From the IMG/VR virus record IMGVR_UViG_3300027797_000012, positions 66,554-130,553 of that record: a stretch of DNA of 64,000 nucleotides. One strand, given 5' to 3'. Shown here in pieces: positions 17,407 to 33,926 of the stretch (its first letter is position 1; every line of letters begins with the position of its first letter). Both the position numbers and the translations under genes were made by a program. This stretch comes from a virus. Under the pieces are notes generated by a model. The model saw nothing but the letters and a program-made list of their open reading frames with translations. It made no database searches and was not told where the DNA came from.

Positions 17407-17417
17407 TATTTATTTGT

Positions 17418-18271: not shown

Positions 18272-18409
18272 TGTCTCTCCCTTACGCCGCCGTAAGAGGA
18301 ATACTACACTGGAAAGTGAGCCATTGCGCGGATAAACGCAGATTATTTTAGAGCAATAAATTACCTCAGGCTAGGCGTGAAAGTGTCTCTAAGAGTCACT
18401 GAGCAATGC

Positions 18410-18937
18410 CTACATATTGTTGTAGGTGCCTAGTTGAAGCACGCCGTTACTATCAGGCCATAGGTACTGATAGTACTCAGGACGATAACCTTTATCCTCT
18501 GGCCAGTTAAATTGAGAATACCAGTCGTACTCTTTGCGTAGTAAAGCAATGCGGTGGGTAGAGGCAATTTGCTCGTATGTATCTTTGTCTTTAAACCAGT
18601 AAGGAAAGGTAAGCTCGTCGCTGATACGCCCTAGCTCAAGCGCGCGGACTAGTGTTCCTTGAATCTTAGGAATCATTGTAGATTTGTAACCGCGAGCTAG
18701 CCACTCGTCACACATTGTAGTTGCGTACATAGACAAAGCTTTTTCGTGGCCTTCCCACATCTTTGCTGCAGGATGATTACGCCAGCCTTTAGGGTCACGG
18801 TGTTCGCCCTGTGGATTTAGCGAGGTAAGCACTAACATAAGTTGCCACGCCTCAAGGACCTGCTTATTAAGGCGCTTGTTGTCTAGTTCTTGAGCAATAT
18901 GCTCGAAGGAGCTAGTCTGAGGTAGAAAGGTTTGCAT
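18410..18937 (-). CDS. Pyrimidine-dimer DNA glycosylase (DenV/MSMEG_6728-like)
   Basis: MQTFLP...LD.KRL.KQ.LE..Q...GW.NHPA..MW.G.E...EW..RGY...SHR-like THR..LLRK...Y.WP. Confidence 0.85.
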   Translation of the reverse strand: MQTFLPQTSSFEHIAQELDNKRLNKQVLEAWQLMLVLTSLNPQGEHRDPKGWRNHPAAKMWEGHEKALSMYATTMCDEWLARGYKSTMIPKIQGTLVRALELGRISDELTFPYWFKDKDTYEQIASTHRIALLRKEYDWYSQFNWPEDKGYRPEYYQYLWPDSNGVLQLGTYNNM

Positions 18938-18963
18938 ATATTCGTCCGTTCGTCATTGTGTAA

Positions 18964-18972
18964 ATTATATCA
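18964..18972 (-). promoter_or_regulatory. Extended -10 promoter (TGA-TATAAT)
   Basis: Consensus hexamer; the TGA doubles as the stop codon of the upstream gene. Confidence 0.6.
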
Positions 18973-19284
18973 GGTAGGCGTGTCCTCTGGCGGTATTTCG
19001 TCAAAAGGAAGAACATTTTCTCCCTCCATGTCCATATCCATTTCTGAGTCAGCTTCTTCTATATCATCAGCTGAAACGTATATACCTACAACTGTAACCT
19101 TACTGCAGATAAAGCATTCGCAGACCGTGCCTGGAGAAAGTTTAATAGGTACATTTACGCTAACTAACCGCGTCAGAATGTTCCCTTCCATGTCTACGCT
19201 TTCTGGTTCCCACACGCTATTTTCCGCAATCCAACACCGCTCACAAAGTGGAACAAGATCATCGTTGTAATCGCGTATACTCAT
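18970..19284 (-). CDS. Hypothetical protein with two CxxC motifs
   Basis: CERC...CFIC, acidic tail; overlapping start/stop with the upstream gene. Confidence 0.6.
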   Translation of the reverse strand: MSIRDYNDDLVPLCERCWIAENSVWEPESVDMEGNILTRLVSVNVPIKLSPGTVCECFICSKVTVVGIYVSADDIEEADSEMDMDMEGENVLPFDEIPPEDTPT

Positions 19285-20546
19285 TTAGCGCTAGTCTCCA
19301 TAGGGCTACTGTACCACTGTTTCTTGGCGTAGTGTCTTGAGAATCCTTTGTCTGAGTCGATTAAGTACTCTCGGTCTCCGATTAGCTCCGCAGGTTCTCC
19401 TTGTGGGTTTCCGTCAAGTGCGTCTTTAAGTGCCTTACCAATCCAGTTGGCCGCTTGCACTGGGACAGCCTTGCCCCATACAGCCGCCAGGTGAGAGTAA
19501 TTGCGCGATTCTTCAATGTTCCAATCGTCAGGCAAACCTTGCATACGAGCAGACTCGCGATGCGTAATAAGGCGCGGTTGCGTCGGATGAATAACGTGGT
19601 CTAGCGCAGAGCCGGTAAGCACGTTGCACCAGTGATCTTCTTTCCAACGGTACGGTTGCGAAAAGCCAAGCTTAAAATTTTTACGAATAACACGAGGAGA
19701 AATGTCAATCCACTTCTGAGGAAACTTACCGTCATTTAAGTCTACGGCTTTCTTAAGCGCACCGCCGGTGTCACCGTTGCCTTCCCAGCCGTCGTTGCCG
19801 ATGATGCTAAAGATCTCTTCAATTCGTTGCGCATGGATGTTTGTTTTACCGATGTGACCGTCAACCATTCCATTTTTTGTGCGTAGGTGCTTAACCCACT
19901 TAGAAGGAGAAGGCGCGGTATACTTTTGCTTATTCCAAGTCTGAGGCATCTCCGCAAGATCACCGATGATGTCCATGATACGTGGAAGTTCTTTAGGTTC
20001 TGGAGTTACCGCGCTAAACTTAAGTCCTGACTCAACAGCAACCCAGAAGTAACGCGGGCGATATGAAAATCCGCCAACCTGTAGGTTATTTTCCTTAACG
20101 TGATACAAATCGTATTTTTTACCGGAGACTTGCTCGACCATGTCGCGATACTTAACCATTACGTCGCGCCCTTGCGTGTACGCTTGCTGAACACACTCGA
20201 ACACTATAGCGCGTGGTTTTACGCGTCCAGCGTATTTCATAAAGGCTACGGTATGCTCGTGTGCCTTAGAGTCAGGTCCACGATTTGCAGGGCCAGACCA
20301 TACAGACCAACCGGAGCATGGCGGGCAACCCATGACGATGTCTGCTTTTTGCACGCGCCATTCGTTAGGATCGTCTGAAAACTCTGAGGTCCAGTCATCT
20401 CCAAGAAGATGACGGTTGCTTTCTGCAACTACGTTTCCAAAGTTTAATGTTCCGGTGCGTTGAATCATCTTCATGTCGTTTTGGATAAAGCCAAGACTCA
20501 TAAAAGCTGCAAGCCCGTTGCAGTCGATAAAGGTATGTTGTGACAA
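19281..20546 (-). CDS. DNA cytosine-C5 methyltransferase-fold enzyme with atypical cofactor motifs
   Basis: Motif IV GCPPCSG, VI FECV, VIII YRPRYF, IX RE.ARMQGLPD, X WGKAVP; motif I degenerate (DCNGLAAFMSLGF). Confidence 0.85.
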   Translation of the reverse strand: MSQHTFIDCNGLAAFMSLGFIQNDMKMIQRTGTLNFGNVVAESNRHLLGDDWTSEFSDDPNEWRVQKADIVMGCPPCSGWSVWSGPANRGPDSKAHEHTVAFMKYAGRVKPRAIVFECVQQAYTQGRDVMVKYRDMVEQVSGKKYDLYHVKENNLQVGGFSYRPRYFWVAVESGLKFSAVTPEPKELPRIMDIIGDLAEMPQTWNKQKYTAPSPSKWVKHLRTKNGMVDGHIGKTNIHAQRIEEIFSIIGNDGWEGNGDTGGALKKAVDLNDGKFPQKWIDISPRVIRKNFKLGFSQPYRWKEDHWCNVLTGSALDHVIHPTQPRLITHRESARMQGLPDDWNIEESRNYSHLAAVWGKAVPVQAANWIGKALKDALDGNPQGEPAELIGDREYLIDSDKGFSRHYAKKQWYSSPMETSAK

Positions 20547-20609
20547 GGTGTAGCCCTTCGTAGTTCCTAGGTAGGACCTTATACCGACATCGCACTTATG
20601 GCATGCTAT

Positions 20610-20933
20610 TTACTCAGAAAGATTTGCTTTTTTCTCTAGATCAATCATGCCTACCTCATAGCCGCAACCTGCGTATCCCGCGATATCAATCCAGGTATCT
20701 CCCTGGAACCCAGATTTAGACGCGTATCGAGCGACTTTAAGACCTACCATCATCATGGCAACGTCTTCTTGTGATAAGTCTATACCTAGTATGACTGACC
20801 AGATCTTGCCTATTCTAGCAAAGTTTTCTTCAGGAGCGCCGTACTGCGCATCTCTATCTCCAGAGATAATTTTAGCAGCTTCGCGTAGAGCTTCTACTCG
20901 GTACTGCAGAGGCTCATTTGATGAATCAGCCAT
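20610..20933 (-). CDS. DUF6378-like all-alpha protein (nucleotide-metabolism associated)
   Basis: EA..II.GDR...YG.P..NF.RI...WS...DVA.MM..LK.AR...D.W.DIAGYA. Confidence 0.75.
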   Translation of the reverse strand: MADSSNEPLQYRVEALREAAKIISGDRDAQYGAPEENFARIGKIWSVILGIDLSQEDVAMMMVGLKVARYASKSGFQGDTWIDIAGYAGCGYEVGMIDLEKKANLSE

Positions 20934-21144
20934 GCTTAGTCTCTATCTTAGTGCGTATTGTTATGTAGGCAATTAGCATTCCGTCATTGTTAGGATCTTC
21001 ATTAAAGTCCCTAGCCTTTAGTTCAGAATCAGGCGGCAACTCCGCAGAGTCGTTATTTACAAATCCTTGCCAACTTTTCTTTGCATTGGCAAGAATTTCA
21101 TCGATGTTTCTACCACGAACAATAAGCTCTACTGTAGATCGCAT
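20926..21144 (-). CDS. Hypothetical protein
   Basis: Tightly coupled to both neighbours in the operon. Confidence 0.55.
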   Translation of the reverse strand: MRSTVELIVRGRNIDEILANAKKSWQGFVNNDSAELPPDSELKARDFNEDPNNDGMLIAYITIRTKIETKHG

Positions 21145-21563
21145 TAGCGAACTCTCTTCTCTAGTTGGTGCGGTGAATAGTGTGCCCCGTCTAAGATAGG
21201 TTCTTTATCATCTGTAGACTTAAATATAATGTCGCCGTAACGGATTCCTACAACCTTACCGCGTCTCCCGTTGTGAATACCGCCGGTTGCGCCGTCGTAC
21301 GCGTCAGCCTTGACACGCACGTCGTCACCTAGACTAATTGCGCCTGGTTGCGCATCAACCCATAGCTCATCAGGATTATTTTTTACTGCGGCATGCCCAA
21401 GAGAAAGACGGCTAAATAGCGCTATAACTTCCTTTTGCTGGTTTACTGATAGGGTAATATCTTTCCAAGTTGCAAGAAGTTTAAGTGTAGCATTACCGAT
21501 ACCTACTTTAGTCTTTGCATCTTGCATTTCAGATCTGACCCATTCATCGTTGACTTCAGGCAC
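21144..21563 (-). CDS. Hypothetical protein with C-terminal SH3/KOW-like barrel
   Basis: GDDVRV...HNGRRGKVVGIRYGDIIF; RBS aggagg. Confidence 0.6.
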   Translation of the reverse strand: MPEVNDEWVRSEMQDAKTKVGIGNATLKLLATWKDITLSVNQQKEVIALFSRLSLGHAAVKNNPDELWVDAQPGAISLGDDVRVKADAYDGATGGIHNGRRGKVVGIRYGDIIFKSTDDKEPILDGAHYSPHQLEKRVR

Positions 21564-22041
21564 TGTAGTCTACCTCCTTAGGTAAGCACTTTGCGCACAT
21601 GTCTGGGCTAGCGCCTCTACCAACGTCGTCGATAGCTCTAGTGCACAATGCACATTTTACGCCTTCTTCTTTAACTTTGTACCCTTTTAGCTGTCTTTCT
21701 TTATTGCGCTCCATTTTTTCAAGATAGAACTTGTCAAGCATTTCGTCAGTTCCGCCAGCTGCAACAATGATATTAGCCACAAAGTGTAGAACATCAACAG
21801 CTTCTTTGATTACTTCTTCTCTATCAGCGTAAGGTTGGTCGTGTTGCCAAGGCTTCCACGAGATTGCTTGGCGCATCTCTGCAAGTTCATCGTCTACCGC
21901 AAGCATGTTCCAGCGCAGGTACTCAACGAACCGACGTATATTCTGAGGCTTATCGCCTTCCATATCTTCGTAGTTAATAAAGTACACGTCTTTTTGTAGA
22001 TCTTTTGTTCTTTTTAGCCATGAATTAAACAGAATAGTCAT
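21556..22041 (-). CDS. All-alpha dNTP pyrophosphatase, T4 gp56 dCTPase/dimeric dUTPase type
   Basis: E..E.....WKPW...E.VD.LHF.......G......Y..K...N..RQ..GY; short C-terminal CxxC...CxxC. Confidence 0.8.
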   Translation of the reverse strand: MTILFNSWLKRTKDLQKDVYFINYEDMEGDKPQNIRRFVEYLRWNMLAVDDELAEMRQAISWKPWQHDQPYADREEVIKEAVDVLHFVANIIVAAGGTDEMLDKFYLEKMERNKERQLKGYKVKEEGVKCALCTRAIDDVGRGASPDMCAKCLPKEVDYSA

Positions 22042-22044
22042 ATA

Positions 22045-23064
22045 CTAACCTTTCTTAGAATATAGTTTAAGTGCACTTGACAGCGCGATTGCTGCATCGG
22101 TGCGAGTTGGTATTGCGTTTACATAGTCCTTACGTTGTTCTTTAGCAAGTGCGTTTCTTTCTTCTTGAGACATATCTTCTATCTTTGAAGCTAGATGCGC
22201 CCATGAACTGCCAATAGCGCTACTCTCTCGCCAATCTGTAGCTACAGGGGTTAACGTATTTATACATTGTATAAGTCTGTATGACCACCACGTGCCGTTT
22301 AGGTGCGGATTGAACAAGGCTCCTACGCCGGCAGCAATTTGATTTTCTACCTGCATGTCTGTCCAACCTTTATGCCACTTCATAGGAACCGTAGGTCTTT
22401 GTAAAGTAGCAGTTGTTGATTTTACCCACGATGATGAATAGTTTTCAACTACCCACTTTTCACGGCGTTCTAGCTCGATAACATCTTGATTGTTTATAAG
22501 ATAGGAATCTAAACTTATAGGAATTAGTGAAGCAGCAGCGCCTTTCGGCAGTTGAGCAGCCACCTTACTTACGTCCTGCCACGGAAGGGAAGGATAGAGC
22601 GTTGTTGGCCATTCTTTAGTAAGTAGGTGCTCTACTACGTCTAATAAGTTTTGAAGCATGTTTGGCTGCGACGCTGTGTCATATCCTTTTCTATACGAAT
22701 AGAAAGGTTTAGTTAAGTTATCCGGTGTCTTTACTATTGCACGAAGGCTAGACGTAATCCGGTTTGGCTCCGGCGCGTCTAAGAAAAGAACTAGCTTATC
22801 GGTGTCAAGCAATACGTCTATAACGCTTAATGCGCCATAGACTCTGTTTGCGCTTAAGCTTGTCAAAGGGCTTAGCCCAACTAAAACGGAGTCGTACTCA
22901 TTTAAGTCTTTAGTGTTCCATGAGACTTCAGGATCTAGTTGCACTACGTCATGTCCTTGAAGAACTAGCACAGTCCTTATTACACTTGCAAACGACGCAG
23001 ATCTGGCATTTGCAGTTTCGGATGCGTGCGAAGCTGACATACCAGTTATAAGAATTTTGCTCAT
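22045..23064 (-). CDS. Putative GT-B (beta-glucosyltransferase-like) DNA glycosyltransferase, paralogue B
   Basis: KILITG...L...GHDV...YD.VLV...FLD...WWSYR; colinear with the upstream paralogue; sits beside the dCTPase-like gene. Confidence 0.5.
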   Translation of the reverse strand: MSKILITGMSASHASETANARSASFASVIRTVLVLQGHDVVQLDPEVSWNTKDLNEYDSVLVGLSPLTSLSANRVYGALSVIDVLLDTDKLVLFLDAPEPNRITSSLRAIVKTPDNLTKPFYSYRKGYDTASQPNMLQNLLDVVEHLLTKEWPTTLYPSLPWQDVSKVAAQLPKGAAASLIPISLDSYLINNQDVIELERREKWVVENYSSSWVKSTTATLQRPTVPMKWHKGWTDMQVENQIAAGVGALFNPHLNGTWWSYRLIQCINTLTPVATDWRESSAIGSSWAHLASKIEDMSQEERNALAKEQRKDYVNAIPTRTDAAIALSSALKLYSKKG

Positions 23065-24278
23065 GCTGGCGTCCCGTCAGCGTTACGCTTAACGCCTTTG
23101 TCCTCTGCAACAGCGCGCTCGATGATGCGATTGCAATGTTCTACAAACGCGGAGTACTCCGGGATATATGGAGCAAGTGCGGCGCGTTGAGCCATAGCCG
23201 CTTCATGTAGCTCTGTATCAGACATTTTCTCGACATCTGTAATCTTTAACTTATACGCATCGCCAAGTGGATCCCCTTCACCCTTATCGGTGACAAGTAT
23301 AGAACCCACATGCGCTGCGTATAGGAAGCGGCTGCGCCACCAGCCAGAGCCCGCGTGCGGATACGGCGGAGAAAGAATACCCCAGTGATGATTATAGAAT
23401 TCAATAACGTCTTGTTCAGTGTCAAAGCGTTGTCCGCCAAGTTTTTTAATAAGCTTACGACTTCCAACAATTTCAACCGGCCAGTCTGGATTTTTCTTTT
23501 CTAACCAAGTATCATGTGGCATAAGAGCTCCAAGCACCCATGCACGCTTCTTGCTTGTCGGTGGCAGAGGAGTAACTGGTTGCAACGTTGGGACAATAGT
23601 TGCCGTAGGGTCTAGAGCTTCGATAGGGCCAACTTCATCAGGCATACGCTTACGTACACTAGATCTATCTCCGAAAGCGTACATAGGGCACACTGGAACC
23701 ATACCAGCAGCCCATCTATCAGCAAGTAAGTCGCGAGCAGCTTCAACTAAACGCTTCTCGTAAGGCTTAATGTTTTCGTCGTTGTCCATCATATAGTAGC
23801 GTTCGATGTAGCACTTTTTTGCCGCCGCAGGATTTAATTCTTTAACTCGCTCGAGCGCTGCCTCGATGTCTGCGCGACTAAAATAAGTTGCGCCTTCTTC
23901 ACCGCGATGCTCAGTTCCTACAAGCAGATGCTTATACAACATCTCCGGTTTACGAATAAGCGCACGTGCACCGTTAAACACTGTGTTAAACTGCCAATCA
24001 TCAAAAAATCCTACACAAGGAATACCAGATGACAGTGCGTATAGCGCGCCCATCGCACCTTGACGACCATTCAACGAGTTAAGTGGTGCAAGATTTATCC
24101 ACAGTACATCATAACTAGAAAGATCTTCGCCTGGAGTAATTTTACGCCAGTCAACATCATGTCCAGCTTCGCGCAGTGCTTTAGCGACAGACGCAGGTAC
24201 GTCAATCTTTTGTATTGTGCGTTTTTCTGTGTTGATCTGCAACGCAGTGAAACCACTCATCAATACCTTCATGTCCAC
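23061..24278 (-). CDS. Putative GT-B (beta-glucosyltransferase-like) DNA glycosyltransferase, paralogue A
   Basis: MKVLMSG...ALREAGHDV...YDVLWI...FFDDW...GILSPPY...GWWRSRFLYA...GSILV, a GT-B-like pattern. Confidence 0.55.
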   Translation of the reverse strand: MDMKVLMSGFTALQINTEKRTIQKIDVPASVAKALREAGHDVDWRKITPGEDLSSYDVLWINLAPLNSLNGRQGAMGALYALSSGIPCVGFFDDWQFNTVFNGARALIRKPEMLYKHLLVGTEHRGEEGATYFSRADIEAALERVKELNPAAAKKCYIERYYMMDNDENIKPYEKRLVEAARDLLADRWAAGMVPVCPMYAFGDRSSVRKRMPDEVGPIEALDPTATIVPTLQPVTPLPPTSKKRAWVLGALMPHDTWLEKKNPDWPVEIVGSRKLIKKLGGQRFDTEQDVIEFYNHHWGILSPPYPHAGSGWWRSRFLYAAHVGSILVTDKGEGDPLGDAYKLKITDVEKMSDTELHEAAMAQRAALAPYIPEYSAFVEHCNRIIERAVAEDKGVKRNADGTPA

Positions 24279-24301
24279 TACCTTTCTAAGTAGATTTGGA
24301 A

Positions 24302-24335
24302 TATCATCTACGCACTGTACCAGGAATAGATGATA
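24302..24335 (-). promoter_or_regulatory. Extended -10 (TGG-TACAGT, 24314-24322) bracketed by a perfect 9-bp inverted repeat
   Basis: tatcatcta (24302-24310) and tagatgata (24327-24335) are reverse complements; located upstream of the modification operon. Confidence 0.5.
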
Positions 24336-24354
24336 GACCAGACTTACTTAGTCT

Positions 24355-24915
24355 TTAGAATGGAGCAGCCGGCGGAGCTGCAACGACTGGAGCTTCTGCT
24401 ACAGCCGGCGCAGGTGCAGGCGCCGGAGCTGGCGCGGCTGCCGGTGAAGGTGCAGGTGCAGGTGCCGGAGCTGGCGCGGCTGCTGCCGGTGTAGCGCCAG
24501 GTGTTGTAGCAGAAGGATAGTACTGCTTAATTTCGTTTTTCTTCTGACCTTGCCAGGTACGTGATGTTACCTGTGCACGGAAAGAACGTCCACGAATTGC
24601 TTGCTCGATTTGAGCGTTTGAAGGGTTGGTTGCAAAAAATTCACGACCAAGACCTAGAGCGTACATCTTACGAAAGAACATGCCTAGTGCAGCATTGTTG
24701 TCTGGAGTAACTACGAGGTTATCCCAAACAAGACGCTTAGCATGCGCTCCGTTTTGTACTTGTGCCTTAACGGCAAACATAGTCTTGCCTGATTGCGAGA
24801 CCTTTGCGGTAGCTTCTACAACTAGTAAGTCGTAATCGCCATCTGGTAGTGGATCATAGCCAGTTGAAACTTCGCCGGCATCTTTAACTAAATCGCCCCA
24901 GTTAAGAGTACTCAT
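24355..24915 (-). CDS. Single-stranded DNA-binding protein (DUF669-like)
   Basis: YDPLPDGDY...SGK.M......G....R.VWDN...NEIK; Pro/Ala tail ending in PF; follows the Sak4-like gene. Confidence 0.75.
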   Translation of the reverse strand: MSTLNWGDLVKDAGEVSTGYDPLPDGDYDLLVVEATAKVSQSGKTMFAVKAQVQNGAHAKRLVWDNLVVTPDNNAALGMFFRKMYALGLGREFFATNPSNAQIEQAIRGRSFRAQVTSRTWQGQKKNEIKQYYPSATTPGATPAAAAPAPAPAPAPSPAAAPAPAPAPAPAVAEAPVVAAPPAAPF

Positions 24916-24917
24916 CT

Positions 24918-25691
24918 TTAGTCATTTCCTTTCGTTGTTGGAGTTGCTTGTGGTGTTGGCCCGAAGATCATGTCTAGCATGCGCTCGATTCCAAGGTTTT
25001 CTTGTTCAACGATCTTTCCAAGTCGACCTTGTACTCGCTCGCCTGCTTCGTATTCGTCTGTGCGTTCTACGTACATACGACGTGCCTTAAACGGTGATTG
25101 CAGTGGATCTGGATTTGGAAAAGTTTCCACTGTAATTGCGCCAAGGATGTCATAGAAGTAAGGTGCTTGAATTGCGAGCTGACCCTGTAGGTACGGACGT
25201 GAACGTCCGTCTGCTCCAGGACGCGCCATAGCAGTCAATACAACAGCTTCTAGGGGCTGTGTAGGGTGCATTGTTAAGTCACGCAGGTCACGCAGTAGCG
25301 CACCCATGTGACGAAGCAACTCGCCCCATTGTTGCATTTTCATCTGTTCAGTACCCGCAATTGAATCCATGCACTTCACTTGAAGTTCAGAGATGGAGTC
25401 AATGATGAGTGACTTGAACTGATGCTTTCCAGTTTGTAACCACTGGAATGTTTTGAGAACAACATCGTAATCGCGAACGTTAACGACTACAGTATCCCAA
25501 GTGCCATCGGCAACTGGTGGTTCTTCTCGGATAGGGTCCCAATACTTAACGGTGATAGGTAGGAACCGATGCCCACCTTCAACATCAAGCATGAGACGTG
25601 GATACGGCGCGGTTACGGCGAAGGTTGATTTACCAACCTTTGATTCTCCGTAAACCATGATAGTCAGCGAACGTTGTACGTCAGACATCAT
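24918..25691 (-). CDS. AAA_24 / Sak4-like ATPase recombinase
   Basis: YGESKVGKST Walker A, LDVEGG, IIDSISE, QQWG. Confidence 0.8.
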   Translation of the reverse strand: MMSDVQRSLTIMVYGESKVGKSTFAVTAPYPRLMLDVEGGHRFLPITVKYWDPIREEPPVADGTWDTVVVNVRDYDVVLKTFQWLQTGKHQFKSLIIDSISELQVKCMDSIAGTEQMKMQQWGELLRHMGALLRDLRDLTMHPTQPLEAVVLTAMARPGADGRSRPYLQGQLAIQAPYFYDILGAITVETFPNPDPLQSPFKARRMYVERTDEYEAGERVQGRLGKIVEQENLGIERMLDMIFGPTPQATPTTKGND

Positions 25692-25721
25692 TGTTTCCTT
25701 TCATCTCTTGTTTGTGTAACA

Positions 25722-26648
25722 TTAGTCTGTTGTCTTTTCTTCTACGCCATAGTAAGCATATGGATTAGAAACTTCAAATGCGTCTTCTAACGCGGCCTCA
25801 GCAGCACTTCCATCGTCAAACATAGGACATATAGAGAAGAATGTACATTTCCATTTGCAATCGCGTGAAGGACTTGGGTACGCCGTAAAGCGGTGATCTG
25901 TGCCTTCGTCTAGCGCCTTACGTGTTGCAAGCATATCGGTAAGTGTTCCATGGATACGTTGCCAGAATGATCTTAAAGCAAAGACGTTATGTCGAACTTC
26001 CATCTGCTCGTAGAAGGGAGGGCGCGCATTAGCCGAACGCTTAACTTTCTTAAGCATAGTAAACAGTCCGCCTTCAGAGCGTTCACCTTCTTTGTTCTGT
26101 GCTGTCTCAAGAAGCATATAGGTAAGAATCTGTTCGTTCATGTGCGCCATTGCTGTAAAGTCGGTAAATGACCCACCTACTGTCTTAAAGTCACGGAACA
26201 TACGCACACCGTCAGCCTTACGACGAACACGCATATCAATCTTACCTTGCAGGATAACCTTGCCGTCAAAGAGTGGCATTTCAATAATCTCTTCTGTAGA
26301 GATCATTTCAAGCTCGGCATCAATGCCGTTTTCTTCAACCCATTGTAGGTAACCTTCAAGCATAATGCGCCCTAGCTCGGCTTCTGAATCTAAATCGAAA
26401 GTATCTCGGCCTTCGTTCTCTAGTAGAATTTTGTCCTGTTCGACTAGTTGCGCATGAGCTTCTTGTAGAGGTATCTGCTTAGAGTAGTACATGTCCAGCG
26501 CTTCATGGACGCGTGAACCTAAGGCAAGTGCGCCTGTGAATGACTTTTGTTTTGGCTGTAGGCGACGATAGTAACTTAACCACCAGCGTCTCTTACAATC
26601 TTTGTAAGTTTGAATCTCGGAGTTAGAGATTCTTATAGGTTGTGTCAT
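25722..26648 (-). CDS. PD-(D/E)XK RecB/Cas4-like exonuclease
   Basis: SNSEI..Y..C.RRW...G..VH..L...E...GKID...DFKT...Q...Y...C.W.C.F..IC. Confidence 0.85.
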   Translation of the reverse strand: MTQPIRISNSEIQTYKDCKRRWWLSYYRRLQPKQKSFTGALALGSRVHEALDMYYSKQIPLQEAHAQLVEQDKILLENEGRDTFDLDSEAELGRIMLEGYLQWVEENGIDAELEMISTEEIIEMPLFDGKVILQGKIDMRVRRKADGVRMFRDFKTVGGSFTDFTAMAHMNEQILTYMLLETAQNKEGERSEGGLFTMLKKVKRSANARPPFYEQMEVRHNVFALRSFWQRIHGTLTDMLATRKALDEGTDHRFTAYPSPSRDCKWKCTFFSICPMFDDGSAAEAALEDAFEVSNPYAYYGVEEKTTD

Positions 26649-28447
26649 AGCTTTCCTGCCTTATCGTCTTTGAGTAGTGAGAGAAGCTTGTCTTTATCTT
26701 TTACGATTTGTTCAAAGTTATCAGCCTTAGTTGATAGAACTTGGATAACACGTTCTTCAATTGAGCCGTCTGTAACGTAATCTGTAACAATAATCGAGTC
26801 GTGGATCTCAGAACCGATACGGTGCACGCGGTCAAGCGCTTGTTTGTGGTCAACAAGTGACCATGGACGTTGCAGCATTACTAAACGACGAGCTGCAGTT
26901 AAAGTAATTCCAACTCCGCCAGCCTGCGCGGTAAATAGAATCCACTTTAGCTTGCCCGACTGAAAATCATCAACCGCTTGCTGACGTTCATCTTCGTTCT
27001 GTGCTCCGGTTATCAAACCGTGAGGGATCTTAGCCTTTGTCATTTCCGCGCTTAATAACTCAATTAACTGACGCGATACTGCGCAGACTGCGACAGAATC
27101 ATCGCCAAAATCTCCGCTGTTTATGTCGCTCATTAAAGAATCTACCTTGCAAGAAGGCTCAGCAAGTATGGCGCGCATCTCGCCGGTGTCTTCGTTTACG
27201 TCCATGGTTGCATATGAACTTGCAAACTGGAGTAGGCGAATAGTTTGAGTAAGCGCTGAAGGTGCGGTAATCGCATCTCCAGACTCTAACTCTGCAATCA
27301 TGGTGTCGCGCATCTGGTCATAAGCCTTCTTTTGCTTAGTCGACATCTCTATATCGCGACGTTCAAACATCATTTCAGGTAACCATGGCAAAACTTTTGC
27401 CTTAAGCATACGACGCATACGTGGATTGACAGTTGCGTAGAACTCTTGTTCCATGTGTGGCTTTACGCCTAAAACCATCATGCCACCGAAGGCATTTAAC
27501 ATTACGTTAACCATACGATCAACCCAACGGGTCTTGCTTGGCCACTCTTCAGGTGATAGCCAGTGAAGGATAGACCATAGATCTAAAACGTTGTTTGCGA
27601 TAGGTGTTCCCGTTAACGCAAAGCGAATATCCGCGTCGCCTGTTGCAGCCCACAAAGCACGAGATTGCTTTGACTTTGGCTCTTTAGAGCGGTGTATCTC
27701 ATCAGCAATCACTGCCTTAAAGTCGATTTCGTTAAGTTCCCGCTTGTGAACCTCGCAACGATTTATTGTTGTTTTATCATCGTGCCCGCCGCAGTCTGTA
27801 CAACGAGCTAAGGCAACCGAGCCATAAGGTGCAAGACGCGAGTGAGAGCGCAAGGACTCCCAGTTAATAACGTATACGTCAGCCTCGCCCTCGAAGATCT
27901 TCCTACGCTGAGTTGCAGAGCCTTTGATAACTTCAACATCAACACCAGGCCACCACATATCAAACTCGCGCTTCCAGTTTTTCTTTAATGTGTTAGGGCA
28001 AACGATAAGAGCAGGGAAAACATCTTCGCCGTTGTCTTGTAGTTGCTTTAATGCTCTAATTGCCTGGGCTGTTTTACCTAAACCAGGCTCATCTGCTAAT
28101 AATGCTCTACGGGCTACCGATAGGAATTTAACGCCCGCACGCTGGTGCGGGAACAGGTCCTCGTTACCCTCTTCAAGGGTTTCTAGGTCACGAAGTTCAT
28201 TGGCTGGGGTAATACGTGTAGTCACTTCGTTGGTTGCCCAGGAGGCCAATCTAGGGCCAATCTCAAGGTCAGTCTTAAAGGTAGATCGCAACGCTAAGCA
28301 TGTTGCCCATGACGTAGGGACAGCCCACACCTGAGTCTTTGCGTCCCACTTCGCTCCTGGAATACTCTTGCAAAGCTCCTTGAGACGCCACTCGGTGTTT
28401 ATTATTACGTGCTTGCCCGATTCATCGAGCTCTACGTTTACTGGCAC
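26645..28447 (-). CDS. SNF2-family helicase
   Basis: LADEPGLGKT, DEIH, LTGTP..N, AGGVGITLT, QA.DRVHRIG. Confidence 0.9.
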   Translation of the reverse strand: MPVNVELDESGKHVIINTEWRLKELCKSIPGAKWDAKTQVWAVPTSWATCLALRSTFKTDLEIGPRLASWATNEVTTRITPANELRDLETLEEGNEDLFPHQRAGVKFLSVARRALLADEPGLGKTAQAIRALKQLQDNGEDVFPALIVCPNTLKKNWKREFDMWWPGVDVEVIKGSATQRRKIFEGEADVYVINWESLRSHSRLAPYGSVALARCTDCGGHDDKTTINRCEVHKRELNEIDFKAVIADEIHRSKEPKSKQSRALWAATGDADIRFALTGTPIANNVLDLWSILHWLSPEEWPSKTRWVDRMVNVMLNAFGGMMVLGVKPHMEQEFYATVNPRMRRMLKAKVLPWLPEMMFERRDIEMSTKQKKAYDQMRDTMIAELESGDAITAPSALTQTIRLLQFASSYATMDVNEDTGEMRAILAEPSCKVDSLMSDINSGDFGDDSVAVCAVSRQLIELLSAEMTKAKIPHGLITGAQNEDERQQAVDDFQSGKLKWILFTAQAGGVGITLTAARRLVMLQRPWSLVDHKQALDRVHRIGSEIHDSIIVTDYVTDGSIEERVIQVLSTKADNFEQIVKDKDKLLSLLKDDKAGKL

Positions 28448-28464
28448 CTTTTACTTATCCTTTC

Positions 28465-28487
28465 GTCGTTATGTCGCTATACTAACA
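28465..28487 (-). promoter_or_regulatory. Extended -10 (TGT-TAGTAT) followed by a 15-nt box shared with 33859-33873
   Basis: + strand gtcgttatgtcgcta vs gtcggtatgtcgcta (14/15 identical), both immediately before an RBS. Confidence 0.5.
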
Positions 28488-28535
28488 GGAAACTACAGAA
28501 ATGTTATTACATTTTCACTTAGTATGTAGTTTTTA

Positions 28536-28988
28536 TCATTGAAGCAGTCTTCTAGGAATCCAACCGAGCTTTACGCACTGTAGCAAGGCGTGTCGTATCG
28601 CATCAAGAGCGTGTCCTTCGCCGCCTACATACCAATACTCAAGCTTCTTAAGTTTAGAATTATCAAACATTGCCTTGGCGTCGGAAGGTGACTGAAGGAT
28701 GATGTCATCTGCCTTTCTTCCCGCGTCCATAAGACATTGCTTGAGAATACCAATTTGCTCGAGGCTGTACGGAGCCTGCGACTTTTTTGCCGTCTGAGCG
28801 TTAATGATAAAGCGCTCGCAGACAATAATTACGTCAGGGTACTCAACAAGAGTGTCACGAATAGGCTTAGCGTACTCTTCTTGTTGATACTCTCCAGCCC
28901 AGAGCAAGACAGGTTCTTCACCGCGCTCAAACGAGAACAATGTCATGCCTGTTGCCTTGCCTGGATCTACTGATAAGATTACCTTCAT
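28536..28988 (-). CDS. RuvC-like Holliday junction resolvase
   Basis: SVDPGKATG...VCERF...PS.AK...HALDA. Confidence 0.75.
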   Translation of the reverse strand: MKVILSVDPGKATGMTLFSFERGEEPVLLWAGEYQQEEYAKPIRDTLVEYPDVIIVCERFIINAQTAKKSQAPYSLEQIGILKQCLMDAGRKADDIILQSPSDAKAMFDNSKLKKLEYWYVGGEGHALDAIRHALLQCVKLGWIPRRLLQ

Positions 28989-30820
28989 CGATACTTTTCT
29001 CCCCAGTTCTCCATAGGTCCGTCAATTCCAGATGTCAAAGGTACAGCCCAGCCTTCGGTTGTAGTCATGCACTGCTTTACAATTTTCATAATCTCCTGCG
29101 CGTCCTCGCGCGGAGCATTGAGTACAATTTCATCGTGCACTGGGACGATAAGCAGTTCAGTTAATTCTGCCTGATCTAGCTTTATTAAGTTAGACTTAAA
29201 TACCTCGGCAGCTCCACCTTGAATTAAATAGTTAACAAGTGTGTATACTCGATCTTCATCGCAAGGCAAGCGTCTGCCAGTCCATGTGTAGACGTAGCCT
29301 TGGCCTTCTGCTTTAAGTCTACGCATACCGGCGTCTTCAATTTGTTTTTGAAAGAGTGACATACCAGGGAAGCGCATGTCGAACGCGTCTGAAACAGTTC
29401 TCATCTGACCTTCTGCTACACCAGCTGTAAGTGCTTGTTTTGCGACGCCTGCGCCGTAGAGACGGCCGTAGACAGTTCCTTTGATGAGATTACGACGCTT
29501 GTCCGACCGTTGCATCGTAGGGTCGTTGTAAATTTCACGACCAATTTCAGTGAACGGATCTGACCCTGTTGCATCTGCACGGTTAAATAGCGTGATGAGG
29601 TTTGGGTCTTGTGAGAGGGATGCGAACATTCTAAATTCGACCTGGTCAAGGTCTGATGTGATAATGACATGATCTTCATCCTTTGGAATAAACGCAGTAC
29701 GGACTGTATCGTCACCCTTAGGCAAAGTCTGTAGTGCTGGGTTCTGAATTGACATACGACTTGTTCGTGCGCCAAGTGTTTTTACAGATGGGTGGACAAA
29801 ACCATTCACATTGTCATTGATAAAGTTTGCAAAGTACGTGTTAGCGAGCTTGTCTGCCTTGCGCTGTTTGAGCACGATCTCGGCAAGTTCTTTTACCTCA
29901 GAGTTACCCGCAATAGCTAAGAATTGCAATTGGTCCTTAGATGCGGATTTTTGTCCTGAAGGCGTATACTCGTTAATCTCTGCGCCAAGTGACTCTAGCA
30001 AGCGCACTAGTTGAATGTTACTAGTTATAGAAACGCCAGCGTACTTTTGCTGCGCCCACGACTTGACTTGCTCCGTGTACGAAGTAAGCTCGTCAAACTT
30101 CTTTCTAGAGTAGTCTAGGTCAATTCGTGCGCCGTTGAGCTCCATACGTGTAACAATGCGGCGAGTCTGCATTTCAAGTTCGTACGCTTTATGGTACGGC
30201 TGTCCTGGACCACACTTCTCGTAAAACTGTTCCCATAAGCGCATAGTTAAGATGCAGTCTAGCGCACCGTATGACCAGTAAGGTTGAAAATTAGTAGGAA
30301 CAGTTCCCCATGTCCAACCGTTCTTAACAAGCTCTTCATCAAGTGTACCCTGCAGTGCAACCGCACGGCCGTCAACGTGTAGAGCAGCAAGACGCTTAAG
30401 CGCACCGGTGCCAAGTGGATCTATGATGTGCGCCATAATCATTGTGTCGTGCACTCTGTGCCAAGGTATTTTCCAACGCGACTGTATGTCAAACCATCGA
30501 GCTTCAAAAGCTACGTTGTGACAAACGATAGGTCCATCAAACTTATCCATAGCCTCATAGAAAACTCCGGCCCATTCATCCCACGGCATAGCCCAGGACT
30601 GTTTACCATCGCCAACTTGAACTAAACGTAGTCTGCCGTGCCATGGAGAAAGTGCATGGTCACGTGGATTGCCTGGAAGTTCTCCAGTTTCAGTGTCAAT
30701 TGCAATCGCGTTGTGAGGTCGTCGTTCACCTAGCCAAGTTATAAACTGACCTGCTTTTTCTACGCTGTCAATTAAGTGAAGCTGAACTCCTTCTAAGTTA
30801 TCAACCATTAGCTTCCTCAA
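28985..30820 (-). CDS. polA: DNA polymerase family A with 3'-5' exonuclease domain
   Basis: Exo DTET, HN..F, Y...D; TSRMS..NP.LQ; motif A DLDQVEFR; motif B R...K...YG..YG; motif C VHDE. Confidence 0.95.
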   Translation of the reverse strand: MRKLMVDNLEGVQLHLIDSVEKAGQFITWLGERRPHNAIAIDTETGELPGNPRDHALSPWHGRLRLVQVGDGKQSWAMPWDEWAGVFYEAMDKFDGPIVCHNVAFEARWFDIQSRWKIPWHRVHDTMIMAHIIDPLGTGALKRLAALHVDGRAVALQGTLDEELVKNGWTWGTVPTNFQPYWSYGALDCILTMRLWEQFYEKCGPGQPYHKAYELEMQTRRIVTRMELNGARIDLDYSRKKFDELTSYTEQVKSWAQQKYAGVSITSNIQLVRLLESLGAEINEYTPSGQKSASKDQLQFLAIAGNSEVKELAEIVLKQRKADKLANTYFANFINDNVNGFVHPSVKTLGARTSRMSIQNPALQTLPKGDDTVRTAFIPKDEDHVIITSDLDQVEFRMFASLSQDPNLITLFNRADATGSDPFTEIGREIYNDPTMQRSDKRRNLIKGTVYGRLYGAGVAKQALTAGVAEGQMRTVSDAFDMRFPGMSLFQKQIEDAGMRRLKAEGQGYVYTWTGRRLPCDEDRVYTLVNYLIQGGAAEVFKSNLIKLDQAELTELLIVPVHDEIVLNAPREDAQEIMKIVKQCMTTTEGWAVPLTSGIDGPMENWGEKYR

Positions 30821-31280
30821 ATATTGTCATTTCAATGTTGCACTTAATAAAGTACTCCATAACTTTTTCTGGCTGCCTGTGCTCTGCCTTTGATTGTATA
30901 CGCATAACTACTCTAGATACACCAGAATTGGATACTAACTTTGCGCATTGCATACACGCAGCGTCTGTTATGTATATGGTTCCGCCTTCAGTGCGCGATC
31001 TATCGACGTACAGTAGCGCGTTTGCCTCCGCATGTATGGACGGGCATGCGTCATACATATTGTCTAATGGGGCAGTGCCTTGTGCACGTGGGCACCAGTT
31101 AACACATTCGCCTTCATTTGGAAAAGAAGCAGCTGGCCCGTTGTAACCTGTAGAACTAACACGTTGATCTTTAGAAACTACAACCGCGCCAATTTGAGCG
31201 CGGCTACAACGAGAACGTAAGGCTACAGTGTCTGCAACCTGCATCCAGACTTCATCCCACGAAGGACGAGTGTTTGTCAT
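30801..31280 (-). CDS. dCMP deaminase
   Basis: RPSWDE...RSRC.R..IGAV...TGYNG...HAEANA...C..C. Confidence 0.9.
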   Translation of the reverse strand: MTNTRPSWDEVWMQVADTVALRSRCSRAQIGAVVVSKDQRVSSTGYNGPAASFPNEGECVNWCPRAQGTAPLDNMYDACPSIHAEANALLYVDRSRTEGGTIYITDAACMQCAKLVSNSGVSRVVMRIQSKAEHRQPEKVMEYFIKCNIEMTIFEEANG

Positions 31281-31462
31281 TCTGATAAGTCTCCCATGCC
31301 TTCTGTGACTGACGCGGCAAGTACTTTTGCAACTAACGAAAGAGCTTCCTTACGAGAAAAGCCTGCGCGCTTTAGCTCTTCAAACATCTCATGAAGCTGG
31401 ATTACCGCATCTCTTAGAGGGCTATCATCTTCTTCGTACTTCTTCATATCGTCATTACCCAT
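31277..31462 (-). CDS. Small hypothetical protein
   Basis: LHEMF..L..AGFSR.EAL helical motif; coupled to both neighbours. Confidence 0.6.
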   Translation of the reverse strand: MGNDDMKKYEEDDSPLRDAVIQLHEMFEELKRAGFSRKEALSLVAKVLAASVTEGMGDLSE

Positions 31463-32324
31463 TTGTCTTTTCCTCGTTCTTTTTTACTGCCTTAATCATA
31501 GCGTTTGCGTACCATTGCTCAAAAGGGTGAAGACCGTACAAAAGCATCTGCTCTTCGTGATGTATGGCAGCGGTTAACGCGTCCATGGCAAAATCTGAAA
31601 CTTGTTCCCATGTATTACCTACCATCGCGGGGATCGTTTCGTATGGTTCATACGTATGCTTTAGATTTTCAGCAGAGTCATAATGCTGCTCGTAGATGTG
31701 CAAAGACCCGACATGATGATGGTACGTGCCTGGCTCAATTCCTAAGATAGACGCTATAGCAAGTTGAACACGCGTAAACTGGAAAAAGTCATACGCCGCT
31801 CCTAGCCATACATCGTTTGAGCGCATGTACACGCTCATGTTAAGTTTGTTGTTGCGAATTCTAAATTGATGCAGGATAGTGCACGGGTAGTCTCGCTTAT
31901 TTGCAAGAAGATCTAGCTCCGGATTCCAAATAGTAACGACCGCCTGTCGTGTATCTGGGTCTGCCTTAAGTCTTTCAACTACAGGAGCGTACTGCGATTG
32001 CGTGCGAACTCCGTATGCCCCGTGAAATAATCCATTGTCCTCGGTGTAGTTAGTAAACTGTGGGCCGATAGCAATAACAAGTTTAGGTGTGCTTGCGCCT
32101 GCGATAAGCTGGCAAGCTTCAACCGCACCGATACCTGCAACAGTCCCGCGTCCTACACCCAACGGTAAGGTGTTATAAACATCATCAATACGAATAATTG
32201 CGTCCTCGATCTCGCGTGTTTTCATACCGCGAGGAGCGACCTCCTTGCCGTGCTTAAGAACATGCTGAACAAGATCAACGTATCCGTTAACTCCGTCAGG
32301 AATATTTATTATCGCAGTATCCAT
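31455..32324 (-). CDS. Thymidylate-synthase homologue, predicted dCMP hydroxymethylase/methylase
   Basis: GAYG.R, D.DTRQAV..IW, catalytic PC, MRSND.WLG..YD (Asp at the specificity position), GSLHIY. Confidence 0.8.
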   Translation of the reverse strand: MDTAIINIPDGVNGYVDLVQHVLKHGKEVAPRGMKTREIEDAIIRIDDVYNTLPLGVGRGTVAGIGAVEACQLIAGASTPKLVIAIGPQFTNYTEDNGLFHGAYGVRTQSQYAPVVERLKADPDTRQAVVTIWNPELDLLANKRDYPCTILHQFRIRNNKLNMSVYMRSNDVWLGAAYDFFQFTRVQLAIASILGIEPGTYHHHVGSLHIYEQHYDSAENLKHTYEPYETIPAMVGNTWEQVSDFAMDALTAAIHHEEQMLLYGLHPFEQWYANAMIKAVKKNEEKTNG

Positions 32325-33325
32325 TTGTCTCCCCTGTCTTTTCCGTGCGCTAGTCTTGTTATTGCCTTACCGTACTCTTCTTTTTGTGAGTTAAAAAATC
32401 GTTTAACGTGCTGCGGGTGTGAGGTTACGGTGTATAGATAGTCAGGGATATTTGCATGGCGTATTCCACGTTCTGCGAGACGCCCTAAAGCTAAAACCGG
32501 TGGACGGCGTAACGTACACCATAGATCCTCAAAACGCTCTGAAGACATATCGTTTACGTTAACGATACCCATAGATTTCCAGCTGTCTGACTGAAGTGCG
32601 GTAAGCAGAAACTCACCTGAGTTGCCATCAACAGGCATGAAAGGTAGAATAGTTTCCTCGCCATATTTCTTAGTAATATTTCGTCTGTCACCTACAAGTA
32701 AAACTCGAGGGAAGCGCGAGCCGATGTACTCCGGGAACTTAGCAAGTTCCTGCGTGTCATCTTGTATTGAATCAGCCCTGTTAATGATATGCGAAGCAAG
32801 ATGACCTATAGTGTCTAGTGAGTCAGCCGCAGGAGTTAGGCGTCCTGCAAGTCCTGCGGAGTTTGCCGCCGCGACTTCATATAACCCTAAGATCTGTTCA
32901 AGCTCGTGCGCTTGTATGTAATCGTCACCGCGAGCATTTAGACGACGAGTAATAACATCAAGAGGTTGATACAACCAAAATTGAGCAACACCACGTGATT
33001 TAAGGAAGAGCTCTGTCCATCGCCAACCTGCTCTACCGAGGAGACCATATCCGTCACCTGTACCCGTCTCAGGGCGTTTTACCGCGGCGTAAGTTACCTC
33101 GCCCCAGTGCCAACGGTCTGCTACGGCTATGCGCTTTGACCAGTCGATATTCTCAATAGACGTAACATAATCCTGCAGGACCCAGCGGCGCGTCATCTCT
33201 TCGGGCTTAGACTTATGGTAAAACTCGATTTCTTTTTTAGGGAACTTTTCAGCAAGTTGTTTTTGCACTTCAGACACAAGGGTAGACTTGCCTGAGGCGT
33301 CTGTACCTTCAATTACTATAAACAT
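32309..33325 (-). CDS. dNMP (thymidylate-like) kinase fused to a uracil-DNA-glycosylase-superfamily domain
   Basis: IEGTDASGKST, DRW...E..Y, RL..RGD; C-terminal VLLVGD...PF....SG.FL...N...P.VLALG..A...HPQ...RF. Confidence 0.75.
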   Translation of the reverse strand: MFIVIEGTDASGKSTLVSEVQKQLAEKFPKKEIEFYHKSKPEEMTRRWVLQDYVTSIENIDWSKRIAVADRWHWGEVTYAAVKRPETGTGDGYGLLGRAGWRWTELFLKSRGVAQFWLYQPLDVITRRLNARGDDYIQAHELEQILGLYEVAAANSAGLAGRLTPAADSLDTIGHLASHIINRADSIQDDTQELAKFPEYIGSRFPRVLLVGDRRNITKKYGEETILPFMPVDGNSGEFLLTALQSDSWKSMGIVNVNDMSSERFEDLWCTLRRPPVLALGRLAERGIRHANIPDYLYTVTSHPQHVKRFFNSQKEEYGKAITRLAHGKDRGDKWILR

Positions 33326-33351
33326 TCGCTGCGTCCTTTGTCTCTAAGAAA

Positions 33352-33360
33352 ATTATAACA
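33352..33360 (-). promoter_or_regulatory. Extended -10 promoter (TGT-TATAAT) of the kinase/synthase/deaminase/polA operon
   Basis: Consensus element upstream of RBS aagga and ATG 33325. Confidence 0.65.
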
Positions 33361-33372
33361 CTAAAACTTGAT

Positions 33373-33843: not shown

Positions 33844-33926
33844 TATATCTCTCCCTGTGTCGGTATGTCGCTAGGCAACATATTATCAAACTTATATGAA
33901 AAAATCATGACATTTGCACTTTATTA

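Follow-up and report, generated by a model that had tools for sequence, protein, structure and literature searches.

How does a phage treat the cytosine of its own DNA when it encodes a thymidylate synthase (TS) homologue, a putative dCTP-degrading enzyme, two glycosyltransferase (GT)-like proteins, and a protein with the fold of a cytosine C5 methyltransferase (C5-MTase)? The question is raised by positions 19281-33325 of a 64,000-nt stretch of a virus record in IMG/VR (IMGVR_UViG_3300027797_000012, positions 66,554 to 130,553). This stretch, called the window here, makes up the latter half of the record, which belongs to an uncultured freshwater phage, is 130,553 nt long, and is rated 100% complete. 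Glycosylated hydroxymethylcytosine DNA is familiar from the T-even phages of enterobacteria. In T4, the dCTPase/dUTPase gp56, the dCMP hydroxymethylase gp42, the deoxynucleoside monophosphate (dNMP) kinase gp1, the dCMP deaminase Cd, and alpha- and beta-glucosyltransferases together produce glucosyl-5-hydroxymethylcytosine (glucosyl-5hmC). Gene content, protein folds, diagnostic residues, and co-occurrence were computed for the window and its relatives, and every chemical step discussed below is inferred from these. Judged by residues, structural models, and analogy with T4, the phage probably swaps the cytosine of its DNA for 5hmC, made at the nucleotide level as in T4, and adds sugar to this base once it is in the DNA.

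An earlier note, made from the letters of this DNA, had named the genes of the region, and all of them were found where it had placed them, on the minus strand:

32309..33325, minus strand: nucleotide kinase-like protein, 338 aa, with an N-terminal P-loop dNMP/dTMP-kinase-like domain and a C-terminal domain of ~150 aa
31455..32324, minus strand: TS-superfamily enzyme, 289 aa, predicted dCMP hydroxymethylase (PF00303, 8.7e-29)
31277..31462, minus strand: small open reading frame (ORF) of 61 aa between the TS homologue and the deaminase (Pfam match sub-threshold only)
30801..31280, minus strand: dCMP deaminase, 159 aa (PF00383, 3e-18; HAE and C..C zinc motifs)
28985..30820, minus strand: family A DNA polymerase (PolA) with a 3'-5' exonuclease domain (PF00476, 3.2e-54)
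24355..28988, minus strand: RuvC-like protein (150 aa), SNF2 helicase, PD-(D/E)XK exonuclease, AAA_24 RecA/Sak4-like protein, and DUF669 protein (Pfam; synteny with phage DSL-LC01)
23061..24278, minus strand: GT-B glycosyltransferase, 405 aa, predicted DNA 5hmC glycosyltransferase (AlphaFold2 [AF2] fold; no Pfam match)
22045..23064, minus strand: second GT-B glycosyltransferase, 339 aa, paralogue of the 405-aa protein (hhalign and AF2 fold; no Pfam match)
21556..22041, minus strand: all-alpha NTP pyrophosphatase, gp56-like, 161 aa, predicted dCTPase/dUTPase (PF08761, 8.7e-11)
20926..21563, minus strand: two small ORFs, 139 aa and 72 aa, inside the cassette
20610..20933, minus strand: DUF6378 protein, 107 aa (PF19905, 5.2e-29)
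19281..20546, minus strand: C5-MTase-fold enzyme, 421 aa (PF00145, 8.8e-21)

The first block (kinase, TS homologue, deaminase, and PolA) is joined by stop/start overlaps. The five recombination and replication genes at 24355..28988 are context and lie outside the modification chemistry. The 139-aa and 72-aa ORFs had no Pfam, PHROG, or NCBIfam match, and no family was found for them at E<=5.

The strongest single argument for 5-hydroxymethyl-dCMP (5hm-dCMP) as an intermediate comes from three residues of the TS homologue, numbered here as in Escherichia coli ThyA. According to Lee et al. (NAR 2026; PMC13326640), N177D marks dCMP as the substrate, L143D/E marks a hydroxymethyl instead of a methyl product, with the acidic residue admitting water, and D169N is diagnostic of newly found 5-hydroxy-dCMP synthases. 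The window sequence was aligned with E. coli ThyA, T4 gp42, the dUMP hydroxymethylase SPO1 gp29, and RB69 gp48, all taken from annotated records. It has Asp143, Asp169, and Asp177 together with the catalytic Cys (ThyA C146), a combination identical to that of T4 gp42. The string K-RDYPC puts Asp at 143 (cf. SDFMC in T4), and ..AAYDF.. puts Asp at 177, where both ThyA and SPO1 gp29 have Asn. The same gp42-type signature was present in six of six actinophage homologues (window, DSL-LC01, GodonK, Forza, GMA2, and Kurnik). It argues against dTMP, 5-methyl-dCMP, and 5-hydroxy-dCMP as the product, and the enzyme is predicted from it to be a T4-type dCMP hydroxymethylase that makes 5hm-dCMP. The best PDB sequence match was MilA, a CMP hydroxymethylase (7.9e-24), and scores were under all eight NCBIfam ThyA equivalog cut-offs (best, 87.1 bits against 174.55). 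The gene at 31455..32324 is the sole TS-family gene in the 130.5-kb genome, in which no ThyX was found.

Enzymes that could feed and drain such a step are encoded nearby. The 161-aa protein is predicted to be a gp56-type dCTPase/dUTPase, with a PF08761 (dUTPase_2) score of 42.8 bits against a cut-off of 22.9, a match to phrog_18650 dUTPase at 4.3e-17, and a BLASTP alignment to T4 gp56 (E 1e-9, 28% over 115 aa). The kinase has the P-loop GTDASGKST (GxxxxGKS/T) and matches phrog_761 'thymidylate kinase' (2e-12) and the PDB structure of SPbeta YorR (2axp, 2e-5). Its stop overlaps the start of the TS gene by 16 nt, and a kinase gene also adjoins the TS homologue in DSL-LC01, GodonK (one small ORF between), Forza, and RB69. 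The kinases that neighbour the TS homologues in DLP3 and RB69 match YorR/thymidylate-kinase structures too (Table 1 of PMC13326640). The role proposed for the kinase is phosphorylation of 5hm-dCMP. Its C-terminal domain (~residues 190-338; 32312-32758) gave nothing significant in Pfam at E<=5 or by phmmer against the PDB. Atlas features placed that domain weakly (0.86) near clusters with uracil-DNA glycosylase (UDG) in 19-36% of members, which is a lead only.

The two GT-like proteins can be assigned confidently, from their models, to the two-Rossmann-domain GT-B fold, in a form that resembles T4 beta-glucosyltransferase (BGT). Their earlier description as paralogous GT-B-like proteins was borne out by BLASTP (E 2e-8), by hhalign of the two families (probability 100%, E 2e-41, 329 columns), and by the AF2 folds. 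The 405-aa protein was modelled from an 85-row alignment (pLDDT 93.8, pTM 0.92), and its first Foldseek match in the PDB was T4 BGT (1qkj, E 4.2e-7). With VIA-align it gave Z 19.8 to T4 BGT (rmsd 3.8, 306/351 aligned), Z 17.8 to SenB, and Z 17.4 to T4 alpha-glucosyltransferase (AGT). The 339-aa model (54 rows, pLDDT 93.0) was compared with 48,161 chains in a search independent of Foldseek. T4 BGT ranked first (1c3j, Z 16.9, rmsd 3.5, 277/333 aligned), and T4 AGT (Z 15.3) and a glycosyltransferase of phage HY126 (Z 14.5) were also found. Across all three structure searches of the two models, T4 BGT was first and T4 AGT near the top.

Sequence searches were silent on function. Phmmer and profile searches of the PDB gave nothing significant for the GT proteins, and Pfam, PHROGs, and NCBIfam yielded no functional name. 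Neither GT, nor any of 85 family members, matches the T4 BGT family PF09198 in Pfam. With these searches null, the link to BGT is one of predicted structure. The 405-aa family has 617 cluster representatives at E<=1e-3 in a 50% library, and 84 of 85 members scanned were free of Pfam matches, the remaining one having a weak match to DUF4884. Atlas language-model features place the GT near PF09198 clusters (score 0.95), again a lead only. Relatives of the 405-aa GT were identified by tblastn in T4-like Aeromonas phages. The single one inspected, phiAS4, carries a second TS homologue with the gp42 signature. That gene lies at record position 151959-152642 and is preceded by a 356-aa ORF, which was considered as a member of the GT family and proved unrelated. 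At 4895-8167, phiAS4 has three successive unannotated ORFs of ~350 aa after a motA-like gene, and the middle one is the tblastn match.

A megablast of the 14-kb region against the phage collection returned zero matches, so protein-level searches were required to place the phage. Its PolA is closest to that of Actinomycetia phage DSL-LC01 (OQ999401; 83% identity), followed by those of Microbacterium, Arthrobacter, and Gordonia phages, and DSL-LC01 is syntenic with the window across the entire block. Together with a WhiB gene at 17418-17930, this supports well the actinophage label that the phage had been given.

The MTase-like protein is encoded in 215 IMG/VR stretches. Eighty such loci (L009-L088), whose MTase-like proteins are 71-98% identical to that of the window, were examined for the remainder of the cassette. 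The order 405-aa GT, 339-aa GT, pyrophosphatase, 139-aa ORF, DUF6378 gene, and MTase-like gene was found in 43 of 43 loci with room for all genes. Where there was room, the 139-aa ORF was present in 72 of 72 related loci and the DUF6378 gene in 77 of 77; the 72-aa ORF was frequently undetectable across the 80. Because these loci are close relatives, the conserved order shows constraint, not independence. Identities to the window protein range from 38% to 97% for the 339-aa GT, against 75-99% for the 405-aa GT, 72-99% for the pyrophosphatase, and the range given above for the MTase-like protein, and the 339-aa GT may be the part under diversifying pressure. In one truncated locus (L064), the match to the 405-aa GT is partial (28%).

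Co-occurrence of the gene set across actinophage genomes, which had been suggested as a check, was found in DSL-LC01 and in phages of Gordonia and Micrococcus. Four distant, cultured phages (GodonK, GMA2, Forza, and Kurnik) are more informative than the close relatives: in each, GT genes are followed by a MazG/dUTPase-type gene and then by the MTase-like gene, which is the relative order of the window. A TS homologue with the hydroxymethylase signature is encoded elsewhere in each genome, beside a kinase gene in GodonK and Forza. Homologues of both GTs occupy the same relative position in GodonK and GMA2, and in Forza only the 339-aa protein mapped fully. Kurnik has annotated GT genes at the position, but its genome was matched by neither GT query with tblastn. 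The number and kind of extra GTs differ among these four phages. A constant core with variable sugar genes is what would be expected of a DNA modification that diversifies its glycan. In DSL-LC01 (23285-29619), a UDP-galactopyranose mutase gene lies between the two GT genes. The cassette of that phage also has a 170-aa 'class I SAM-dependent methyltransferase' (SAM, S-adenosylmethionine), with no Pfam match, directly before the MTase-like gene. These genes hint at a sugar of the galactofuranose type in that lineage, and possibly at a partner related to the cofactor.

These parts can be assembled into a route resembling that of T4. The gp56-like pyrophosphatase would convert dCTP (and dUTP) to the monophosphate, so that dCTP is kept from DNA and dCMP is supplied. 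The TS homologue would hydroxymethylate dCMP at C5 with methylene-tetrahydrofolate, and the adjacent kinase with the host NDP kinase would raise the product to 5hm-dCTP. The phage PolA would insert it, for which it would need to accept a modified deoxynucleoside triphosphate. The dCMP deaminase would turn part of the dCMP into dUMP for host thymidylate synthesis; the phage itself encodes neither ThyA nor ThyX. Once the DNA has been copied, the GT-B paralogues would glycosylate the 5-CH2OH group, with a host nucleoside diphosphate (NDP)-sugar as the probable donor. The two might serve different sequence contexts or anomeric forms, as do the alpha- and beta-enzymes of T4, or might act one after the other to give a disaccharide. 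The earlier note had likewise proposed replacement of cytosine at the nucleotide level with decoration after replication. It had named a disaccharide or a non-sugar adduct as possible decorations and the C5-MTase fold as a hint of new chemistry, each of which may still hold. At the level of genes, that proposal gains from the TS signature, the gp56-like pyrophosphatase, the BGT-like folds, phiAS4, and the co-occurrence; its chemistry itself stays a prediction.

The C5-MTase-fold enzyme, whose conserved gene comes last in the cassette, is potentially the new element of the system. It had been described as altered, and this was confirmed in motifs I, II, and III, which hold the SAM contacts and are non-canonical, and in motif X, where Asn is replaced by Lys. 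Seven diverse homologues (33-71% identity) were compared, and the family profile was aligned to M.HaeIII; the comparison is one of sequence alignment only. Motif IV PPCS, motif VI E(C/S)VQQ, motif VIII RxR, and THRE..R.QG.PD.W are invariant in all seven, and the first three of these are each found in 80 of 80 close relatives. The motif II Glu, a contact to the SAM ribose, aligns with the Gly of a conserved R-T-G, and the motif III Asp column is variable (D/K/E/D/D/N/K). Motif I has Cys or Val where Phe is usual, and its second Gly has become Ala in the window protein. At motif X, GK(A/G)V replaces GN(A/S)V in all seven diverse homologues and in each of the 79 close relatives whose sequence reaches this far. 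The PF00145 alignment begins only at profile position 58, and the score against TIGR00675 (dcm) is 38.6 bits, with a cut-off of 100.65. Strong homologues in the phage collection were confined to DSL-LC01, 13 Gordonia records, and Kurnik, and five cyanophage matches were weak. The proteins of GodonK, GMA2, Forza, and Kurnik are 33-37% identical to that of the window. One cyanophage, S-TIM5 (619-1455, 3839-5056), has a homologue of 22% identity that lacks a recognisable motif I and keeps the motif X Asn. It lies 2.4 kb from a TS homologue with Asp177 adjoining a polymerase gene, and this cyanophage lineage may also have cytosine modification.

As read from the alignments, the enzyme retains the machinery for covalent attack on cytosine C6 and is without the canonical SAM contacts. 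Our best guess from these motifs is that it does not carry out ordinary methylation, and the balance tips toward non-methyl chemistry. One specific form of such chemistry is offered tentatively. The Cys-at-C6 covalent mechanism could act on 5hmC in DNA or on its glycoside, in place of SAM methyl transfer. The activated 5-CH2-OR group would be exchanged or extended, with the invariant motif X Lys and the R-T-G pocket holding a non-SAM cosubstrate or leaving group, and the final base would be other than a simple glycosyl-5hmC.

The alternative that survives best is that the protein is an ordinary SAM-dependent, sequence-specific C5-MTase whose N-terminal motifs have drifted, and that it methylates unreplaced cytosines or other DNA. 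The Pfam DNA_methylase match lies far over the cut-off, motifs IV, VI, VIII, IX, and X are intact as catalytic motifs, and the Gordonia homologues retain NGLGGG at motif I. What makes this possible but doubtful is the combination of changes in the other direction: Glu to Gly in motif II, a variable Asp in motif III, Phe to Cys/Val in motif I, and a motif X Lys without exception in both homologue sets, with a score far under the NCBIfam dcm cut-off. A free C5 would also be lacking in a genome predicted to be fully 5hmC.

This last point counts in both directions, and it is one of several that weigh against replacement of cytosine by glycosylated 5hmC. If every C5 is substituted, a conserved C5-directed enzyme is left without an ordinary substrate, which could mean that replacement is partial. 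The residue signature of the TS homologue is a published correlation and no proof of product. The sequence link between the GTs and T4 BGT is not significant (hhalign probability 16% and 0.8%; BLASTP E 0.16). Unrelated GT-B enzymes (PimA, SenB, and BshA) are only 1-3 Z units below BGT, so it is the genomic context that points to DNA as the acceptor. An NDP-sugar gene is absent from the cassette, and UDP-galactopyranose mutase (GLF) was not found in the genome. A separate glycosylation island stands beside collagen-like fibre genes, so that phage GTs with non-DNA targets do occur here. In the literature searched, no nucleoside-chemistry, restriction, or signal-level data were found on this phage or its relatives.

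Some of these points would suit a phage that makes 5hmC DNA but directs its two GT-B proteins at other acceptors, for instance virion proteins, cell-wall polymers, or small molecules. The GT-B fold is very broad, PimA, SenB, and BshA have Z-scores near that of BGT, the sequences are not significantly linked to BGT, and a fibre-linked glycosylation island is already present. We nevertheless consider this unlikely. T4 BGT came first in three structure searches with T4 AGT near the top, and in 43 of 43 related loci the genes lie between recombination genes and the dCTPase-like gene. Both homologues hold the same relative position in GodonK and GMA2, and T4-like Aeromonas phages, among them phiAS4 with its gp42-signature enzyme, encode relatives of the 405-aa GT.

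A CmoX-like carboxymethyltransferase working with carboxy-SAM is an improbable identity for the MTase-fold protein. An engineered MTase with Asn changed to Lys reportedly uses carboxy-SAM. According to PMC12783734, CmoX has Arg350 in place of the motif X Asn (HhaI N304) and holds the carboxylate of carboxy-SAM with it; the enzyme also has an SPPC motif, the canonical SAM contacts Phe25, Glu47, and Asp69, and CmoA as its partner. The basic Lys at motif X and the (C/N)PPC of the window family recall Arg350 and SPPC of CmoX (PMC12783734). CmoX, however, retains canonical SAM contacts that the MTase-like family does not, the match to the CmoX structure 8yf3 is weak (E 1.7e-7) and partial, no CmoA was found in the genome, and the reaction needs a free C5. 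A search of the genome for Tet_JBP (PF12851) gave no match, but control genomes were silent too, so this result carries no weight either way.

A route through 5-hydroxycytosine (5hoC), which the earlier note had not considered, was also examined. Here the TS homologue would make 5-hydroxy-dCMP, like its counterparts in RB69, DLP3, and RL38JI. Sugars would then be put straight onto the C5 oxygen by the GTs. The TS superfamily and the kinase-beside-TS arrangement are common to RB69, and the 5-hydroxy-dCMP synthases likewise match MilA best (both in Table 1 of PMC13326640). The UDP-galactopyranose mutase of DSL-LC01 also has its parallel in RL38JI. The diagnostic D169N is absent, however. The window reads RSND at this position and RB69 gp48 reads RSQN in the same alignment, in which RB69 gp48 has Glu143, Asn169, and Asp177, whereas Asp169 is kept in all six actinophage homologues, that of the window included. 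A 5-hydroxy-dCMP synthase of the RB69 gp48 type is disfavoured on this basis, and the route as a whole is very unlikely.

Equally hard to credit is a TS homologue that acts as a dCMP methylase of the XP-12 type, making 5-methyl-dCMP, or simply as a thymidylate synthase, giving DNA with 5-methylcytosine (5mC) or with no replacement. The gene is annotated 'thymidylate synthase' in all relatives, and N177D by itself would suit a dCMP methylase too. Against this, Asp143, where ThyA has a water-excluding Leu, fits the hydroxymethylases T4 gp42 and SPO1 gp29 according to PMC13326640, and the 5mC alternative is judged here on this L143 criterion; canonical ThyA is rejected by Asp177, which rules out dUMP specificity, and by scores below every equivalog cut-off, and two DNA-GT-like enzymes and a dCTPase-like enzyme would have no role in a 5mC scheme.

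Every long ORF from 38236 down to 16510 is on the minus strand, and within 19281-33325 neighbouring genes mostly abut or overlap by 1-20 nt, which fits operons as far as gene spacing can tell. A promoter and terminator scan against shuffled sequences showed no enrichment (21 vs 23.6 expected; 19 vs 16.6). Of the two co-transcribed operons proposed earlier, the shared orientation stands. The division into two and the co-transcription stay conjectural: five genes on the same strand lie between the blocks, and the flat scan is uninformative about where operons end. All or part of the stretch is present in twenty public sequencing runs from 16 studies. A run deposited as metatranscriptomic (X2; contigs only) gave even coverage of all 30 bins across 17000-36000, and a number of its contigs ended where those of the DNA run X1 did.

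Downstream (3') of the MTase-like gene comes a Cys-rich ORF of 104 aa; its start and the MTase stop share 4 nt. The interval 17418-19284 also encodes a T4 DenV-like pyrimidine-dimer DNA glycosylase (18410-18937), a 114-aa ORF, and the WhiB-domain protein (17418-17930). DSL-LC01 has a pyrimidine-dimer glycosylase gene and a WhiB-family gene in an order matching the window. Giant minus-strand ORFs at 34133-38236 and 52379-63999 presumably encode tail/fibre and structural proteins. One, of 1367 aa, ends in a Peptidase_S74 chaperone domain; another has 1583 aa, and a third has at least 2109 aa and continues past the edge of the window. The glycosylation island occupies 2712-17391 on both strands, and its GC content falls to ~0.37 at 8000-14000. 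It probably modifies virion fibres, not DNA, and its glycosylation/hydroxylation genes are as follows:

2712-4379: collagen-repeat protein
7666-8895: GlcNAc-transferase-like protein
10320-10925: 2OG-Fe(II) oxygenase, prolyl-hydroxylase type
11276-11947: GT25
12799-13383: Methyltransf_24
14014-14823: NAD-dependent epimerase
14858-16513: GT2-TPR-methyltransferase fusion
16510-17391: GT2-like protein

No report of hydroxymethylcytosine in actinophages was found in the literature searched. The excerpt of the DSL-LC01 paper used here lists both its mutase and its MTase as auxiliary metabolic genes, assigns the first to the cell wall and the second to anti-restriction methylation, and makes no mention of base replacement in DNA. 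What the window holds is most likely the T4 scheme in another virus lineage and host phylum, in which a new GT-B family takes the place of the alpha- and beta-glucosyltransferases and one extra conserved enzyme is added. Phages of this type are common in lakes, and the module also occurs in cultured phages of Gordonia and Micrococcus, which makes the prediction directly testable. If it is true, the Pfam-less GT family, with its 617 cluster representatives, is a new family of DNA glycosyltransferases. An MTase-fold enzyme in a genome predicted to lack free C5 is a testable puzzle of cytosine chemistry, and could yield a new DNA-labelling enzyme.

Compared with T4, the system has an equal list of parts: the diagnostic residues of gp42, a gp56-like pyrophosphatase, GT-B folds like those of BGT and AGT, and a dCMP deaminase. 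It differs from T4 in its actinobacterial host and PolA-based, siphovirus-type replication module, in a YorR-like kinase, and in a genome without phage ThyA or ThyX. The GTs of the window are outside the BGT and AGT sequence families and are paralogues of each other, unlike the alpha- and beta-enzymes. We know of no counterpart in the T4 pathway for the extra C5-MTase-fold enzyme, the DUF6378 protein, or the two small ORFs.

The 5hoC systems of RB69, DLP3, and RL38JI, as described in PMC13326640, likewise combine a TS-superfamily dCMP enzyme with an adjacent YorR-like kinase, a dCTPase, and several GT-B DNA glycosyltransferases. DSL-LC01, the relative of the window phage, shares UDP-galactopyranose mutase with RL38JI, whereas the window cassette is without sugar-nucleotide synthesis genes. 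The absence of D169N relative to these three systems leads to the prediction of a hydroxymethyl, not a hydroxyl, handle.

The nearest relatives of the window are DSL-LC01, GodonK, Phendrix, Sixama, GMA2, Forza, and Kurnik, in which the module has the same order. In the records of these phages the genes go by the names of thymidylate synthase, methyltransferase, and hypothetical protein, and the accessory GTs vary by lineage. The MTase-like protein shares its fold and motifs IV, VI, VIII, IX, and X with M.HaeIII, M.HhaI, and DNMT1, and its motifs I-III are non-canonical. CmoX has also replaced the motif X Asn with a basic residue, but there it is Arg; the window family has Lys and (C/N)PPC, and a CmoA partner was not found. 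In contrast to canonical C5 methyltransferases, the MTase-like family of the window sits in genomes predicted to be without unmodified cytosine.

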